64,000 bases of DNA. Origin: Myxococcota bacterium (lineage in GTDB: Bacteria; Myxococcota_A; Polyangia; Nannocystales; Nannocystaceae). Below are positions 33,001 to 39,000 of the stretch, piece after piece; within the stretch, counting starts at the first letter, position 1; each line of letters starts with the position of its first letter. The stretch spans positions 199,916 through 263,915 of the forward strand of contig JBCCHT010000011.1 in assembly GCA_039028615.1 (NCBI GenBank), in the 5' to 3' direction. Position numbers: made by a program.

Positions 33001-36000
33001 GTTCGCTCCCATGGGGAATCGAACGTCGAACAGCTCCATGTCCTTGGTCGCGTCGGTGAAGCCGCCGTTGCCATCGTTGATGTAGATCTGCAGGCGCTCC
33101 TGGTCCTCCATGTTGTCCGGGCCGGGAAAACCGAGGAAGTCTGCGGCCCAGACCTCGAGCTTGGCGGGCGGGTAGCCCCCCACGAAGAGGTCGAGGTTGC
33201 CGTCCTGGTTGGCGTCGAAGAACCAGCTGGTGAAGCTATGCACCCCCTGCCCGCGCTCGAGGTCCACCCCGAGATCGGGCGCGACGTCGACGAAGCTGCC
33301 GTTTCCTTCGTTGCGATACAGGTGGTTGGGCTGGTTCAGGTTCGAGACGTACAGGTCGAGGTCACCGTCGTTGTCGTAGTCGCCGAAGGTCGCCCCCTTG
33401 GTGTTGGGCGGACCGGGCAAGCCCCAGACGTTCTCGACGCCGGCCTCGTGGGCGACGTCGACGAAGGTGCCGTCGCCTTCATTGTGGAACAGCTGCGAGG
33501 GGTACCACTCGTTGCCGACGTAGAGGTCGACGAACCCGTCGTTGTCGTAGTCGCCCCAGGCGGCGGCTTGGGCCGGGTAGGCGCGGAGAGCCAGGCCGGC
33601 CTCGAAGCTCACGTCGGTGAAGTTGCCCTTGCCATCGTTTTGCAGCAACGAGTTGCGCTGCCGCCCGGGCGCATGCAGCTGCCACGCGCCACGCACGACA
33701 TAGATGTCGAGATCACCGTCGTTGTCGTAGTCGGCGTGCATGAGGTTGAAGCCGCCGAGCTGCTTGGAGATGCCCGACTGATCGGCCCAGTCGGCAAACG
33801 TGCCGTCCCCCTCGTTGCGATAAAAGTGCATGGTCGAGCACGAGTCGTAGCTCGACGAGACGATGTCGAGGCGGCCGTCGCCATCGAAGTCGTCCATGAT
33901 CGCGCCGCCGATCACGTTGAAGTCGTCCATGCCCTTCTCGCCCGCGAGCTCGGTGAAGCCCGCCATGTCGCGATCGGGCTTCAGGCGCTCGGGCGGCAGC
34001 ACGAAGCGCTCGTCGACGCCCTCGGGGTAGATCCCCACCGCCATGGCGGCCACGTTGAGCAGCCACCGCGCCCGCACGTCGTCGGGGTCGGCCTCGAGGA
34101 CCTCCATCAGCCACTTGATGGCGGTGCGCCCGGCCTCGGGATTGGCCCACACGCCCTCCTTCTGGATGGGGAAGAGGCAGCTGTCGGGGTTGTGCCCGTG
34201 CAGACAGTGGGTGACCTCGCCGCCCCGCAGCGCGGCCACGGCCAGCTCGGTGCGCAGGCCATTGACCTGCTCGAGCGGGTACTCGGCCTTCTGCGCTGCC
34301 CGCAGGGCGAGCAACAGCTGCTCCTGGGCGGGCGCGATGTCGTTGTGGCGCAGCAAGTGCGTCGACAGGGTGCGCCGGGTCTCGATGATCGCATCGACGT
34401 CGCCCTGCCCCTCGAGCTCGGCGACCTTGGCCGTCAGCTCGTCGATGCGCCCGCGACCGAGCATGGGGTCGGTGCTCTTGCCGATGGTCTCGCAGAACGA
34501 CTCGAGGCTGGCGACGTCCCGCTTGATGAGGTCGGCGCGCAGGGCCGTGGCGTAGCCGCCGATCCCGGCGAGCACCAAGGTCAGGCCCCACACCGCGGGC
34601 TCGATGCCTCGACCCCAGCGCCGTCGCGGCGCCCGAACGATGAGCACCATGGCGCCCAGCAGCAACGCCGCCTGCAGCCCTCGGACGGCGAGTAGCCGAC
34701 GGCTCCCGAAGTATTCGTAGGGGGTGAGCAGCTCGAACTGGGCGAGCGCTCGATGCCCCACGAGCATCGCGGTCACGACCCAAAAAGCCCCCAGCAACCG
34801 CCGTCGGGCGGCGCGGAGGGCCTCGAGGTTCGACTCGTTCGGTTCAGAGGGAGTTCTGCTCATGCGACCCGTGGGGCAGGAGGGCCCGCAGGTCGGAGAC
34901 CGAGGGAGGTCCTGCCATCGCCAGTAGAACACGCCCTTGCGCGTCGGTCACGATGGTCGAGGGCAAGACGTCCTTGCGCACGAGTGCGTCGAGCACGGCC
35001 TTGGCCGCCGAGCGCTCGGTGACGCTCAGGTTCACCAGCAGGTCGTAGCCGGGATGGTGCTCGTCGATGTAGCTGCGGAGCATGTCCGGCGTGTCCTGGT
35101 CGTCCATGGGCAGGCCGAAGAGCGCGAGCTCGTCTTTGCCCAGGGCCTTCCGAAGCACCGACAGCTGCGGCATGTGCTTCTTACAAGACTCACACCACGT
35201 GGCCATGGTGGAGTAGAGCACCAGCTTCGCCTCGCCCGCGCGCTCGTGGGCGGCATCGACCACGAAGGAGCGCCCTTCTTCGGGCAGGGCCACCGGGTTG
35301 GCGGTGGCCAGCGTTGCCTCACGGTGCAGGTACGGGTGCAGCACCACGCCCGAGCCGTCGACGGTGTCCGCGGGGTTCTCGAACAGCTCGACCCGCTGCC
35401 CCACGGCCACATCGCGCACGGTGCTCGTCTTGCCCGAAGGCCAGGTGATCCGCATGGCCGACACGGTGGTCGCTTCGCCCACGCCGATCACCAGCGTGGA
35501 GGAGTTTTGGGAGGCGAACCCTTCGCCCAGTCGCTTCTCGCGGAGCAAGGTGGTGCCGCCGGGCAGGTCGAGCTGGATCCGAGTGCCGATGGCGTCGCGG
35601 TTGCTCCACTCGGTGCTGGCCTCGGTGCCCTTCAGGCCGCCGCGCAGGTCGACCGCGATCATGTTGCCGATGGTGGCGGGGTCGAAGACCTCGGATGCGC
35701 CGTTGCGGTAGAGCACGAAGCCGGGCTCGTTGGCGTTGACCATCGCGATGTCGTTGAGGCCGTCGTGGTCGAAGTCGATGCTCGACCACGCGCGGGAGTC
35801 GGAGGGAGAGTCGAGCCCCACCACACCCGCGATGTCGTCGAACTGCTTGCCGCCGAGGCTGAGGAAGAAGTGGTTTCGCTCGCCTCCGCTGAACGAAGCC
35901 GAGGCCGAGGACTTCCAGCCCTCCTCGCGCCAGCGCGACTTCCAGGGGTCCTTGTTCTGAATGCCGGAGTGAAGGTTGTCCGAGGAGCGCACGACCGTGC

Positions 36001-39000
36001 GCCAGAACTGGCTTCACAAATCTACGTCGACGGCGATCTCCTTGGGCGCGGTGTAGAAGCCCGAGAGCGCGTAGATGTCGAGGAACCCGTCGTTGTCGAA
36101 GTCGGTGAACTGCGAGCCCCAGCCCCAGCCCCCCTTCTCGACCATCATCTTGGGCGCCTCGAGGCCGGACACGTGGTCGAAGGCGCAGTCGCTGCCCATG
36201 TTGCGGAACAACGAGTTGCCGCTGGCCATCTTGACGAAGTTGCCATCGATGAGGTTGCCCAGGCCGCCCGCGATGCGGCGCCCGGCCTTGCTGTACATGT
36301 TGGTCACGTACAGGTCTTGGGCGCCGTCGTTGTCGTAGTCGCCCCAGCTCACGCCCATGCCGAAGCCGACGTCGGCGGTCTGGGTGAGCTCGGTGATGTC
36401 GGTGAACTTGCCGTCGCCGTCGTTGCGGAAGAAGTTGTTCGAGGCGAAGTCGTGCGCCAGGTACAGGTCCTGATCGCCGTCGTTGTCGTAGTCGGCCCAG
36501 CCCCCGTGGTAGGTGTGCCGCCAGACGCCGAGCTGCTCCTGCAGCGGCGATTCCTCGAAGGTCCCGCCCACGTTGGACAGAAACAGGTTGGGCGGACCCA
36601 CCTGGTCGATGAACTCGTGGGCGGTGAGCGAGCGCTTGTGCAGCTCTTTGGCGTCCTCGGGCGACAGATAGGGCGCCAGCAGGGTCTCGGCCGGCTCGAT
36701 GGGGATCTGCCCCGCCCGCTGCGAACGCATCATCTTGACCGCGTAGGTCGACAGGTAGACGTCGAGGCGGCCGTCGCCGTCGTAGTCGGCGGACGAGATG
36801 GAGGTGGTCAGGTTGGGCAGCTCGACCGCGACCTTGTCGCTGGCGTCGGTGAAGCGCCCGTCCACGTTCTCCATGTACATGGAGCGCTTGGCCGTGCGAC
36901 CGAGGAACAGGTCGGAGTCACCGTCGTTGTCGAAGTCGCCGAACAGGCCGCTCGAGACGAACGGAATCCCGGTCAGCCCATACTGCTCGGTGACGTCGGT
37001 GAAGGTCCCGTTGCCGCGATTGCGCAGCAGCTTCATGTCGCTGAAGTGCGGCATGACCAGGACGTCGTCGAAGCCGTCGTGGTCGATGTCGGTCACCGCC
37101 AAGCCGGGGTGGTGGTCCCACGCGATGAAGTGGAAGCCCCAGTAGGGCTCCTTCCACTCCGGGTCGGTGGCCATGCCCACGATGATGTCGTGCAGCTCGG
37201 AGTGACGCAGGGCCTGCCGGGTCTCGGGGTCCGGCACCGCCTGCGCCAGCACGTCCTGGAACATCTTGTTCTTGGCCTGGACGCCCTTGAGCTCCTTTTG
37301 TTTCCACTTGTAGATGCGCCAGGGACGACGGCCCTCTTCGTCCGGCTCGGCGCTGGTGTCCTCGCGCCAGAACAGCTCCTGCTTGCCCTTCATGGTCAGC
37401 CAGGTGCCGTCTTTGGCTCGCGCCAGCGCAGAGAAACCGGACAAGGCCTTCCACTCGGTGAGGTCCTCGTTGGTGAACTCGCCGCGAATGAAATAGATCT
37501 TCGCGTGCTCGAAGTAGTCGACCTTCTCGAAGAGCGGATCCCACGGAGACTCCGTGATCGCCCCCGTCGAGAAGTCGTCCTCGAGCGGCCATTCGAAGTG
37601 AACGGGCGCGACCTGGGACGTGGGCTCGGGCAGCTCGCCGCCCGAGGCGAGGCCGAGCACCTTCACCTTCGGCTCGAACAGGTCGGCGCTGCGATAGTCG
37701 CCGAGGGATAGGTTCGCCACTGCCTTGGACAGCTGCTTGAGCCGCGGCGTGTAGCGGAGGATGAGCTCTTCGGACTCGATGACCCCCTCCAGGGTCTCGG
37801 CGGCCGCCTGCTCTTCGGCAGGGACGGGCGGATGGCGATGCAGGTACAGCGCAGTACCGCCCGCCGCGATCGCACTGGCGGCGCCTATGAGGAGAGGGAA
37901 TCTATTTCGAGACTTGGAGCGTTCAGCATCAAGGATTGGCATTGGGGACGGTGGGCTGGGGGCGCGATGAGACCAGGGTAGGGTCGACCGACCACGACAG
38001 CCTACATGCTTCTGGCGCTAGGGCATCAACCCGACCCGCAACGGAACCATGCCCGAATGACCGGTTGTTCGGGCCACCAACCGTTCACTCAAAGATCAAT
38101 TGCCAAGAACGCAACGAGTTCCTCAGCGGGCCGGAAACCTTGGATCATGCGCAGTGGTGTACGGGCCCCAGGGTCGATCAACACGAACGCGGGCGTGGCC
38201 TGGAGATCGAGCCCTTCGAACAATGTCCACGTTGCATCGTCGGTAATGTCGCGCCGGGCAACGGTGAATTTTTGCATCGCGGCGTTCACTTTGGGACGTA
38301 AGAGTTCCGCCTCCTGTCGCTCGCAGGCCCCACAACCTTTCGCCGTCAGGTGTAATAGCAGCGGCACGTTCCGCGCGTTCGCGTCGCGAAGCGCGGAGTC
38401 GATCGGCGCCCAATTAATTTCGACGCGCGACGGTTCTTGCGGATCGCGCCCCGTCAACCGAGCCAGCTCGCGTTCCACGCCTGCCTCGTTCGCCCATTTC
38501 AACTTCGCGGCGACATTGCACGACCCGTCGATCACGAAGGCCGCATTCGGCCAACCCTTGTAGGCATTCGCGGTCGCGTCATCGGGCGTGTCGAGCAACA
38601 CGGGAATCGTGCCCGGCACCTCGTCGCGCAGCCGACGAGCCAGCGCGCGCCGCTGTTGCAAGGTGGTCGGTGTCGCCACCTCGTCGAACTCGTCGATGCG
38701 CCGGATCGACACCGCCTCGTGCGACGCGACCTCGCCGTCTCCGTTGACGTCACACGAACCAAAGAACGAAGGCGAGCCCCCGTACTCCGCCTGCGTGACG
38801 ATCCCGTTGCCGTCCTTGTCGGACGCCAGCAAGCGATCGAGCTCCGCGTTGAGCTCGTCGCCGCCTTGTCCTTTTGCATGCGCTTCCTTCGAGAACACGA
38901 AGGCGAAGCGGGCGTCGTCACCCCATCGATCGGCTTGGGCCTCGAACCGAGGCACCTTCATCCGAAAGGGGGGTCAACTATAGGAGCCGAAGATCAGCAC

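Follow-up and report, generated by a model that had tools for sequence, protein, structure and literature searches.

An FG-GAP beta-propeller followed by an ASPIC domain is the core that the protein described here shares with the CRTAC1/ASPIC family (murine CRTAC1, PDB 9etn), whereas CRTAC1 has neither a selenocysteine (Sec) nor a fused thioredoxin domain. We know of no enzymatic function of CRTAC1. A working analogy is offered by the PilB-type MsrA/MsrB fusions with a TlpA-like domain, in which the catalytic centre, once oxidised, is restored by a periplasmic thioredoxin-like domain tethered to it, although their catalytic parts appear unrelated in sequence and fold to the propeller protein.

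Among described selenoproteins, the Prx-like thiol:disulfide oxidoreductase, the thiol:disulfide interchange protein and the UGC-containing TlpA family of a 2026 table of 119 prokaryotic families are similar in that they belong to Sec-using bacteria, are predicted to be exported redox proteins and possess a TlpA/AhpC-TSA-type domain. In such thioredoxin-fold envelope selenoproteins Sec lies inside the fold (UxxC or UGC), whereas here the domain carries an ordinary CxxC, which Sec precedes by about 274 residues, within the propeller part. The TonB-dependent receptor of the FCYXU type, the GSU2204/MtrB-PioB barrel protein and the UshA-like protein of the same inventory are comparable in being large, in their predicted envelope location and in having one Sec, and are likewise known from computation only, but their folds and motifs differ. 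None of the 119 families is like the CRTAC1-like propeller family, and NCBIfam contains no model for it, giving nothing but a weak TlpA match on this protein. The claim made in the survey's finding, that this selenoprotein type is missing from published inventories, holds for these two sources.

The gene was found in a 64,000-nucleotide stretch of a Myxococcota genome (the window); its features and those of its neighbours are collected in Table 1. The best explanation of the locus as a whole, to which we assign a probability of about 0.55, is a 1032-residue Sec protein with a propeller-bound substrate and a tethered CxxC.

Table 1. Features of the selenoprotein locus (window coordinates)
Feature	Position	Strand	Basis
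Downstream paralogue, FG-GAP/ASPIC, no TGA, no U-S-x-x-W-R motif, 23% identical	32416..34932	-	
Whole predicted selenoprotein gene, 1032 codons + TGA stop	34844..37942	-	Translation with TGA=U; full-length read-through relatives
C-terminal thioredoxin-fold domain (AhpC/TSA, TlpA-like), residues 896-1021	34880..35257	-	Pfam, NCBIfam TlpA, AF2 secondary structure
WCESC redox motif, C917 and C920	35183..35194	-	Read from joined protein
UnbV_ASPIC domain, residues 784-851	35390..35593	-	Pfam
Putative bacterial SECIS-type hairpin, codons W647-R652	35986..36003	-	Folding, covariation, synonymous-codon constraint
In-frame TGA, codon 643, presumably read as Sec	36014..36016	-	Aligned codon in 25/25 Myxococcota loci and best 80 of 528 loci
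FG-GAP beta-propeller blades ahead of Sec, residues ~279-640	36023..37108	-	Pfam FG-GAP_3 and FG-GAP, AF2 model, Foldseek 9etn_A
Predicted N-terminal signal anchor, residues ~15-34, hydrophobic, after RSKSRNR	37841..37900	-	Read from translation
Upstream deiodinase-like selenoprotein, FGSYS-U-PPF, TGA 38974-38976, C-terminal DsbD-gamma-like domain (GCGAC)	38089..39195	-	

Gene structure and distribution

When the frame was read with table 11, two ORFs were obtained, 36014-37942 (642 aa) and 34844-35992 (382 aa), the latter opened by the earliest start past the TGA, 7 codons further on. With TGA translated as U, the frame gives one protein with a single internal TGA, and the terminal stop is TGA as well. 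In every locus compared, both flanks of the TGA are conserved and the frame is continuous. The sequence case is strong that the two called genes are one, and we consider it very probable that they encode a single selenoprotein. The survey's finding had described this frame with its one TGA, the context FYTAPK-x-IAVDVD[LI]-U-S-x-[FYW]-WR-x-VVR, the domain order FG-GAP, UnbV_ASPIC, AhpC/TSA with an ordinary CxxC, and a deiodinase-like selenoprotein as direct neighbour; all its factual elements were reproduced and its reading as a selenoprotein is upheld.

In the joined protein Pfam detected FG-GAP_3 (127 bits), FG-GAP (72 bits) and UnbV_ASPIC (59 bits), whereas AhpC-TSA, at residues 905-1005, scored 25.9 bits, marginally below the cut-off of 26. 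The C-terminal domain was also matched by Redoxin and Thioredoxin_8 and, with 28.8 bits, by NCBIfam TlpA. C586, C917 and C920 are the only cysteines. The AF2 model (pLDDT 87.5, pTM 0.88) has a propeller fold spanning the TGA break with high confidence, and places U643 in the first turn of helix 642-652, so that Sec would open a helix following a propeller blade. The top Foldseek match was murine CRTAC1, 9etn_A (E 6e-26, TM 0.69 on the target); 9etn was also the sole PDB sequence match for the single protein, in an alignment that leaves out the Sec-bearing helix. The predicted hydrophobic segment at the N-terminus would most likely anchor the protein in the membrane, facing the periplasm or the cell surface; the translated N-termini of relatives are lipoprotein-like or signal-like.

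A search of 400 other Myxococcota genomes (E<=1e-30) yielded 24 matches in 22 genomes, each with exactly one TGA, as had been claimed for the relatives. The TGA falls in the same alignment column in all 25 Myxococcota loci (these 24 and the query, 35-54% identical), and D641, U643, W647 and R648 are invariant among them. Conservation of this kind greatly exceeds what chance would give. The range first given, relatives in Myxococcota, is correct but much too narrow. When the 528 relatives found were ranked by tblastn E-value, the top 80 loci all had TGA at the aligned codon. At least eight named phyla contribute to these 80 (Planctomycetota 32, Latescibacterota 14, Verrucomicrobiota 11, Gemmatimonadota 8, Myxococcota 6, plus others). 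Altogether 104 distinct loci retain it; they represent no fewer than eight named phyla, and the most divergent share about 27% identity with the window. Database entries stopping at the UGA had been noticed before; 92 of the 120 protein matches listed, and 36 of the best 150 cluster representatives, end exactly at the U position. We conclude that this is a widespread bacterial selenoprotein family, cut in two by gene callers.

The U-S-x-x-W-R motif marks a subfamily only and is absent from the neighbouring and the 1700-residue paralogues. The upstream deiodinase-like gene, which scored 102.7 bits against NCBIfam deiodinase_rel (model cut-off 250), is outside the propeller family, and its FGSYS-U-PPF motif was absent near the 24 relatives, the adjacency not being conserved. 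No conserved neighbour genes indicating a substrate were found.

The Sec position and the CxxC motif

Homologues with an ordinary residue at this position are single proteins. Those with the W-R motif had E (19), S (16), D (10), N (5), C (5) or A (4), and Q, M, G and R also occur. Cys as the counterpart of Sec, suggested by one homologue that was recovered here as P0003 (...IDL-C-SDFWRGVVRS), thus occurs but is not usual, E, S, D or N being found mostly. The E/S/D/N spectrum counts against a catalytic redox role; it is likewise compatible with the capping of a helix N-terminus or with metal coordination through oxygen.

Within the best 80 of 528 loci, CxxC was kept in 60 of the 61 Sec loci having the C-terminal domain, as an ATWCxxC motif 259-300 residues past Sec (60/80). 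Of the 20 loci without CxxC, 19 lack the thioredoxin domain altogether; in the remaining one, L146, the C-terminal part is as long as the domain (356 aa) but does not contain the motif. CxxC was present in 15 of the 24 Myxococcota relatives. Representatives with E/S/D/N or another non-Cys residue have a domain that is equally long, yet only 8 of 56 contain CxxC; of the Cys forms, 3 of 5 do. Dyads with Cys right before Sec (CU) were seen only in relatives without a thioredoxin domain (L052-L055). The difference between 60/61 and 8/56 suggests that Sec and CxxC may function as a redox relay. On the tree the association depends on about nine state changes, and independent contrasts, which are underpowered here, went in the same direction in 3-5 of 7 cases and in the opposite direction in 0-1 (median p 0.125).

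FG-GAP blades are cation-binding modules, and an inserted Sec could coordinate a thiophilic metal or metalloid (Cu, Zn, Hg, As etc.), either by itself or jointly with the CxxC or an adjacent Cys, in a binding, chaperone or sensing module rather than a catalyst. Variation between Sec, Cys, Glu, Asp, Asn and Ser, with an invariant Asp two residues before, is typical of ligand positions that change metal preference and rare for catalytic cysteines. The CU dyads of relatives without the thioredoxin domain point the same way, CU motifs in the 2026 family table being largely those of metal-handling selenoproteins (SaoL, HgcA, MbdU, CopZ family). However, a helix N-cap explains the E/S/D/N spectrum equally well, no conserved metal-handling genes were found nearby, and the joint loss of CxxC and Sec is explained no less well by a redox pair; we regard a ligand role as unlikely.

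It is more improbable still that Sec is inserted at a tolerant, helix-capping surface site where it has no reactive role and has been kept by history, for example by a SECIS locked into a conserved peptide. The high variability of the position in non-Sec homologues and the rarity of Cys would agree with this. Taking into account the decoding cost of Sec, the retention of TGA in so many divergent loci argues against it, since a neutral site would be expected to drift to Cys, Ser or other residues far more often inside the Sec clades; the small number of state changes and the retention of CxxC along with Sec also count against it.

The downstream hairpin and Sec decoding

The SECIS of the E. coli fdhF type is a hairpin inside the coding sequence, soon after the UGA, whose small apical loop includes G-U. 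At this locus a hairpin starts 10 nt past the TGA and consists of a 5' arm GGCGCAC (36003-35997), a GGUC loop (35996-35993), which we take to be the same as the fdhF loop, and a 3' arm GUGCGCU (35992-35986). It differs from the fdhF type in its short stem (6-7 bp plus a weak extension) and in having no obvious bulged U. The general form of the loop is [G/A]GU[C/U]. No match was found anywhere in the window by an Rfam scan at gathering thresholds.

In an alignment of 14 sequences 90.8% of the cells were paired and three of the seven pairs had changed on both sides; the observed values were reached by none of 500 shuffles for three of five measures, and by 6 and 16 of 500 for pair count and pair-type count. 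With 84 distinct sequences, 89.4% were paired and double changes were present in four of seven pairs (24 cells; 0/500 shuffles), whereas slid registers gave just 20-77% pairing. The hairpin is maintained at the same site by three different pairing registers. It overlaps the conserved peptide WR-x-VVR, and part of its conservation is therefore due to the protein. Synonymous codon choice in 104 loci was strongly constrained: Thr+6 was ACG in 50/51 (background 35%), Val+7 GTC in 81/95 (43%) and Val+8 GTG in 82/92 (37%). Ranked by folding energy against windows of its own gene, the hairpin reached the top 5% in just 7 of 25 genes (median rank 12.6%; z -0.96 for 71 nt). The presence and conservation of the 7-bp GGUC-loop hairpin reported by the survey were thus confirmed, but its energy is by itself ordinary for these GC-rich genes, and the case for a SECIS rests on covariation and synonymous-codon constraint.

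The genome encodes SelB (308 bits), SelA (403 bits), SelD (385 bits) and a tRNA-Sec (68.6 bits, anticodon tca). selA was present in 21 of the 22 further Myxococcota carriers of the gene, versus 248 of 401 genomes in the sample (G000 included), and five carriers in other phyla all had selA, or selB and tRNA-Sec. In one carrier, G351 (1140 contigs, 92% complete), neither selA nor selB was found, and its one tRNA-Sec-like match (49.4 bits) is borderline. We infer from these observations that Sec is inserted at UGA643.

If the TGA were a true stop, the locus would be either a pair of genes, one FG-GAP and one ASPIC/thioredoxin, or a pseudogene, with a coincidental hairpin. The gene-caller annotation, the N-terminal pieces standing alone in the database, the ordinary energy of the hairpin and the missing selA and selB of G351 could be read in this way. 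We consider it very improbable because of the conserved residues directly on either side of the TGA, the propeller fold crossing the break, the single-protein homologues, and the RNA covariation with synonymous constraint; one identical lesion across phyla is not expected of a pseudogene. Downstream structures are known to stimulate stop-codon read-through in other systems, but selenium-free reading of the UGA here (by a near-cognate Trp or Cys tRNA or local reassignment, the hairpin acting without SelB), conceivable insofar as Sec insertion is itself deduced, is hardly credible given the full Sec machinery co-occurring with the gene elsewhere, a loop retaining the G-U that is the SelB contact in SECIS loops, the classic Sec motif in the adjoining gene, and the gene's own terminal TGA, by which TGA works as a stop in this genome.

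A possible redox mechanism

In the preferred reading, a Sec protein with a tethered CxxC, UGA643 would be decoded by SelB and tRNA-Sec under the direction of the short hairpin. The product would be held by its N-terminal segment, most likely in the periplasm or at the cell surface, its body formed by the CRTAC1-like propeller and the ASPIC beta-sandwich. Sec643, at the start of a conserved helix (D-x-U-S-x-[FYW]-W-R) that follows a blade as an insertion, would provide a selenolate as the reactive centre, and the propeller would hold the substrate, for instance a peroxide, sulfoxide or disulfide to be reduced. The oxidised Sec (selenenic acid or selenenylsulfide) might then be resolved by the CxxC of the TlpA-like domain (WCxxC), tethered through a flexible linker and re-reduced from a DsbD/CcdA-type supply of reductant in the envelope. 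Taken alone, we give this redox mechanism an even chance. In members of the family without the thioredoxin domain, the same role would have to be taken by a CU dyad or else by a separate partner.

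The interrupted reading frame and its conservation

The survey's finding held that two adjacent gene calls are one protein interrupted by a single in-frame UGA. The reading frame bore this out: it is continuous, and its sole internal TGA is codon 643 (Sec643 or U643). Read with translation table 11, the same frame yields two ORFs of 642 and 382 residues. Pfam searches with the joined protein reproduced the reported FG-GAP repeats, the UnbV_ASPIC domain and the C-terminal AhpC/TSA-type domain, and the GGUC-loop hairpin said to follow the UGA was recovered as well (coordinates are collected in the table). 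Because frame, single TGA, domains and hairpin were all found as described, the original observation is confirmed as written, and its interpretation as a type of selenoprotein is supported and extended. We put the probability that the gene encodes a selenoprotein, with putative Sec insertion at codon 643, at about 0.9.

Features of the selenoprotein gene, its product and the flanking genes (window coordinates)
Feature	Window position	Strand	Residues	Remarks
Selenoprotein gene	34844-37942	-		1032 codons; sole internal TGA is codon 643; terminal stop also TGA
In-frame TGA	36014-36016	-	643	translation of the frame
Hairpin GGCGCAC-GGUC-GUGCGCU	36003-35986	-		stem begins 10 nt after the TGA
FG-GAP repeats			before Sec	Pfam on joined protein: FG-GAP_3 127 bits, FG-GAP 72 bits
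UnbV_ASPIC			784-851	Pfam, 59 bits
Thioredoxin-fold domain			905-1005	Pfam AhpC-TSA 25.9 bits, just under the cut-off of 26
Model, N-terminal part				disordered N-terminus with hydrophobic segment (residues about 15-34), then long helix
Alpha/beta domain	37255-37678	-	89-230	confidently modelled, between N-terminal helix and propeller
Model, later parts				propeller; ASPIC sandwich; low-confidence linker 875-890; thioredoxin fold 896-1021
Deiodinase-like selenoprotein gene	38089-39195	-		directly upstream; FGSYS-U-PPF; TGA at 38974-38976
FG-GAP/ASPIC paralogue without TGA	32416-34932	-		directly downstream; 23% identical; no Sec-helix motif

The source genome can make selenoproteins. It contains selA (402.7 bits), selD (385.4 bits), selB (280.6 bits, or 308.5 bits including a C-terminal piece) and a tRNA-Sec (68.6 bits) with the anticodon tca as determined by ARAGORN. 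In the phylum as a whole selA was detected in 248 of 401 sampled Myxococcota genomes, the source genome included, thus Sec use is common there, and 21 of the 22 other Myxococcota genomes with the gene have selA. In G351, a Myxococcota assembly of 1140 contigs (92% complete) with the TGA-containing gene, neither selA nor selB was found and the tRNA-Sec-like match was borderline (49.4 bits), which points either to an incomplete assembly or to a genuine exception. Among five carriers from other phyla, three had selA and two had selB above the cut-off, the latter two with tRNA-Sec matches of 70.6 and 59 bits.

Conservation of the TGA was determined by searching 400 other Myxococcota genomes with a 301-residue query around the codon (E<=1e-30). 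The claim that relatives carry exactly one TGA, in one alignment column, held for all 24 matches (in 22 genomes), whose open frames span 812-1657 codons: in the 25 loci, this one included, the TGA occupies a single column in the context D-x-U-[ST]-x-[FYWLH]-W-R. D641, U643, W647 and R648 are invariant in the full-length alignment, at an overall identity of 24-41%. A wider scan of bacteria, one genome per species, with one peptide pattern derived from an 8-sequence alignment (A6) returned 528 relatives. All of the best 80 of these loci (by tblastn E-value) have TGA at the aligned codon, and they span at least eight named phyla: Planctomycetota (32), Latescibacterota (14), Verrucomicrobiota (11), Gemmatimonadota (8), Myxococcota (6), Pseudomonadota (2), Calditrichota (1) and Acidobacteriota (1), with 5 unplaced. 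In several genomes the TGA-bearing gene is present twice: G304, G362 and those to which the contigs of the locus pairs L073/L079, L070/L082, L078/L093, L108/L137 and L119/L128 belong.

Public databases mostly store the family cut at the Sec codon. As had been claimed, entries end at the UGA: 92 of the 120 matches listed terminate precisely at the U position, two more do so by eye, and 36 of the 150 best cluster representatives share this end. Where such pieces are named, they are called FG-GAP or VCBS repeat proteins, or hypothetical proteins.

The deiodinase-like selenoprotein gene reported next door was found again, with a TGA of its own. Its product begins like a lipoprotein (MRWSSLVSWPLLSLVSLGC) and carries GCGAC in a DsbD-gamma-like domain at its C-terminus; the NCBIfam model deiodinase_rel scores 102.7 bits against a cut-off of 250, and the TGA is followed by a hairpin, GCCUCG-GUU-CGAGGC (z -2.2). 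Around the 24 relatives the deiodinase-like motif was not detected, and no neighbour was common to more than 4 of the 25 loci. ORFs homologous to the downstream paralogue lie near the gene in four relatives (L051, L054, L055 and L067), the one in L054 being confirmed by Pfam as FG-GAP/ASPIC. L051 also has a molybdopterin-oxidoreductase gene (Oxidored_molyb, sulfite-oxidase/MsrP-type; L051:1035-2294, +) near the selenoprotein gene, to which ORFs in L052 and L055 are homologous by BLAST alone.

The hairpin as a putative SECIS element

Models of the bSECISearch type expect a hairpin directly downstream of the UGA, at a fixed distance, with a small apical loop containing G-U; in the E. coli fdhF element SelB contacts the G-U of the apical loop. 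The stem of the hairpin described here begins 10 nt 3' of the UGA, and its small G-U loop reads [G/A]GU[C/U] across loci. The Rfam scan of the window at gathering thresholds gave no match.

In all 25 genes the folding energy of the 30 nt following the TGA lies below the mean of the gene. A rank within the best 5% of windows from the same gene was reached in only 7 of the 25 (median rank 12.6%), a result that makes folding energy a weak stand-alone test. Since energy alone is insufficient, the case for a SECIS rests on how the element varies, that is on covariation and codon choice. In 14 close relatives 90.8% of the cells were paired and three of the seven pairs had changed on both sides; cell-based measures reached the observed values in 0 of 500 shuffles, two pair-count measures in 6 and 16 of 500. 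With 84 distinct sequences 89.4% were paired and double changes occurred in four of seven pairs (24 cells; 0 of 500 shuffles), slid registers pairing only 20-77%; this alignment was fitted to the structure by a model and therefore leans toward it. In more distant Myxococcota groups the register has shifted and a hairpin persists at this position (GCGGCA-GGUCG-UGUCGC and GGCGAC-AGUUG-GUCGCC).

Codon choice under the hairpin is constrained beyond the protein sequence. Among 104 distinct loci of 47-74% G+C, Thr at +6 was encoded by ACG in 50 of 51 cases (background 35%), Val at +8 by GTG in 82 of 92 (37%), Val at +7 by GTC in 81 of 95 (43%) and Arg at +5 by CGC in 84 of 104 (47%). At the edge of an Akkermansiaceae locus (L132:3293-3348, -) the SECIS covariance model gave a second match of 28 bits on the opposite strand, which may mark a second, divergently oriented copy.

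Fold of the protein and the residue at the Sec position

The joined protein has an FG-GAP propeller followed by UnbV_ASPIC, both over the Pfam cut-offs, as have 22 of the 24 relatives. AhpC-TSA exceeds its cut-off in 12 of the 24 (26.1-54 bits), with two further matches under it. NCBIfam gave a weak TlpA match alone (28.8 bits against a cut-off of 230). With AhpC-TSA just under its cut-off, TlpA far below and WCESC present, the C-terminal domain appears to belong to the TlpA-like/AhpC-TSA thioredoxin-fold superfamily without being a TlpA orthologue. The two cysteines of WCESC (C917 and C920) and C586 are the only three of the protein.

An AlphaFold2 model built on the 25-row alignment had a pLDDT of 87.5 and a pTM of 0.88. 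The hydrophobic segment near its N-terminus can be read as a putative signal anchor, and the alpha/beta domain preceding the propeller had no Pfam or NCBIfam match. The model places U643 within the first turn of helix 642-652, directly after a blade strand (622-627). The top Foldseek match was murine CRTAC1 (9etn_A; E 6e-26, TM 0.69 normalised to the target), followed by integrin alpha propellers and other propellers. 9etn was also the only PDB sequence match of the single protein. The order and fold of propeller and ASPIC are similar to those of CRTAC1; the sequence alignment to 9etn skips the Sec helix. The U-S-x-x-W-R helix, absent from the downstream paralogue and from paralogues of 1700 residues, is specific to a subfamily.

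The Cys-form homologue in the survey's finding was recovered as P0003, a full-length database protein with Cys in place of Sec (IDL-C-SDFWRGVVRS); five cluster representatives also have Cys there. Such forms are a minority. Among representatives with a W-R motif the residue at the Sec position is E (19), S (16), D (10), C (5), N (5), A (4), M (2), Q (2), R (1) and G (1). This non-Cys spectrum, which suits a helix N-cap or an oxygen ligand, implies that not every member of the family depends on the Sec site.

A second observation points the other way: Sec occurs together with a CxxC that is intact in the tethered thioredoxin domain. In 60 of the best 80 Sec loci ATWCxxC follows 259-300 residues after Sec; 19 end about 212-226 residues past Sec without the thioredoxin domain (short forms), and one has the domain length and no CxxC. 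The 24 Myxococcota relatives comprise 15 with CxxC, one degenerate, five short and three unassigned. CxxC is present in three of the five Cys forms. Representatives with neither Sec nor Cys have a C-terminal domain of equal length, in which CxxC is kept in 8 and lost in 48, four being short. Immediately 3' of the 19 short forms, a search for a thioredoxin gene of their own yielded noise alone. On a FastTree phylogeny of 166 rows, in which one locus was entered twice (L050 = L146), the raw table of Sec or Cys against CxxC was 80 / 4 / 8 / 43, with about nine changes of state. Seven independent contrasts gave the same direction in 3-5 and the opposite in 0-1 (median p 0.125, underpowered). The contrasts are consistent in direction, but the association of Sec with the CxxC is as yet unproven.

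Four Myxococcota relatives (L052-L055, identical with L028-L031) have a Cys immediately before Sec (YDC-U-SEFWR). Three of them were shown to be without the thioredoxin domain; the C-terminal part of L055 is broken by an N run. Two of the four also have a Cys at U+9 (WRAVAC). In another Myxococcota Sec-form subgroup (L058-L061) a Cys is conserved in the blade that follows the Sec helix, three residues past S-x-S-G-x-E (ERHC, ERNC or EQNC; columns 101-103 of alignment A5), and could be a local resolving cysteine.

Proposed role and significance

Table 1 of a 2026 review of prokaryotic selenoproteomes contains 119 families and subfamilies, none of them an FG-GAP, ASPIC or CRTAC1 entry, and a term search of the review found none either (PMC13188914). 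By term search, the family is not mentioned in the main text of the deep-Sep paper (PMC12013277) or in the main text, as distinct from the supplementary family list (Table S2), of BSepDB (PMC13326102). No model for the family exists in NCBIfam release 20, none of whose selenoprotein models matches the protein. Full-text searches of the literature, as distinct from the supplements of older ocean-metagenome surveys, gave no relevant paper joining selenoprotein or selenocysteine with FG-GAP, ASPIC, CRTAC1, VCBS or propeller; co-occurrences of selenoprotein and CRTAC1 were co-mentions in proteomics and biomarker papers. Absent from the review table, NCBIfam and the literature searched, the family is filed as undescribed. 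Most catalogued families have Sec inside a thioredoxin-like fold (PMC13188914); here, in contrast, it sits on a propeller scaffold and not in the thioredoxin fold.

The mechanism that we propose would have a reactive selenolate, located on the propeller at the N-terminal end of a helix, recycled by the tethered TlpA-like CxxC; the E, S, D and N forms would be redox-dead relatives. Such a putative redox relay between Sec643 and the CxxC has, in our judgement, an even chance of being correct, and the combined statement, a selenoprotein with a redox-relay mechanism, is slightly favoured. Its chief competitor is the idea that Sec makes up a soft-metal site together with the CxxC or the neighbouring Cys. 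It would fit the finding that residues of oxygen-ligand type (E, S, D, N) are commoner than Cys at the Sec position; the same four residues also serve as N-caps. Building on the redox relay, a broader and more tentative reading, to which we give roughly one chance in three, is that the family represents an unrecognised class of cell-envelope selenoenzymes, in which a CRTAC1-like propeller would bear a catalytic selenol at the N-terminal end of a helix, with recycling by the tethered TlpA-like CxxC, Sec and not Cys being dominant in at least eight named phyla, and the Glu, Ser, Asp and Asn homologues with degenerate thioredoxin domains being redox-dead derivatives.

Prokaryotic selenoprotein families are still being catalogued singly, and this one is large, with 528 relatives in species-representative genomes. 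Public annotation routinely splits these genes into two proteins, and mending them alters the selenoproteome counts of Planctomycetota, Latescibacterota, Verrucomicrobiota, Gemmatimonadota and Myxococcota. Because one site occurs naturally with Sec, Cys, Glu, Ser, Asp or Asn, and the partner CxxC is lost in step, the question of why Sec is used rather than Cys becomes directly testable. The family puts selenium into the CRTAC1/ASPIC propeller fold, for which, to our knowledge, no chemistry is known, and whose human member is a much-studied biomarker. If the selenoenzyme reading is true, this would be the first catalytic activity for the enigmatic CRTAC1/ASPIC family, and it would suggest that animal CRTAC1 is a descendant, or a binding-only cousin, of an enzyme scaffold.
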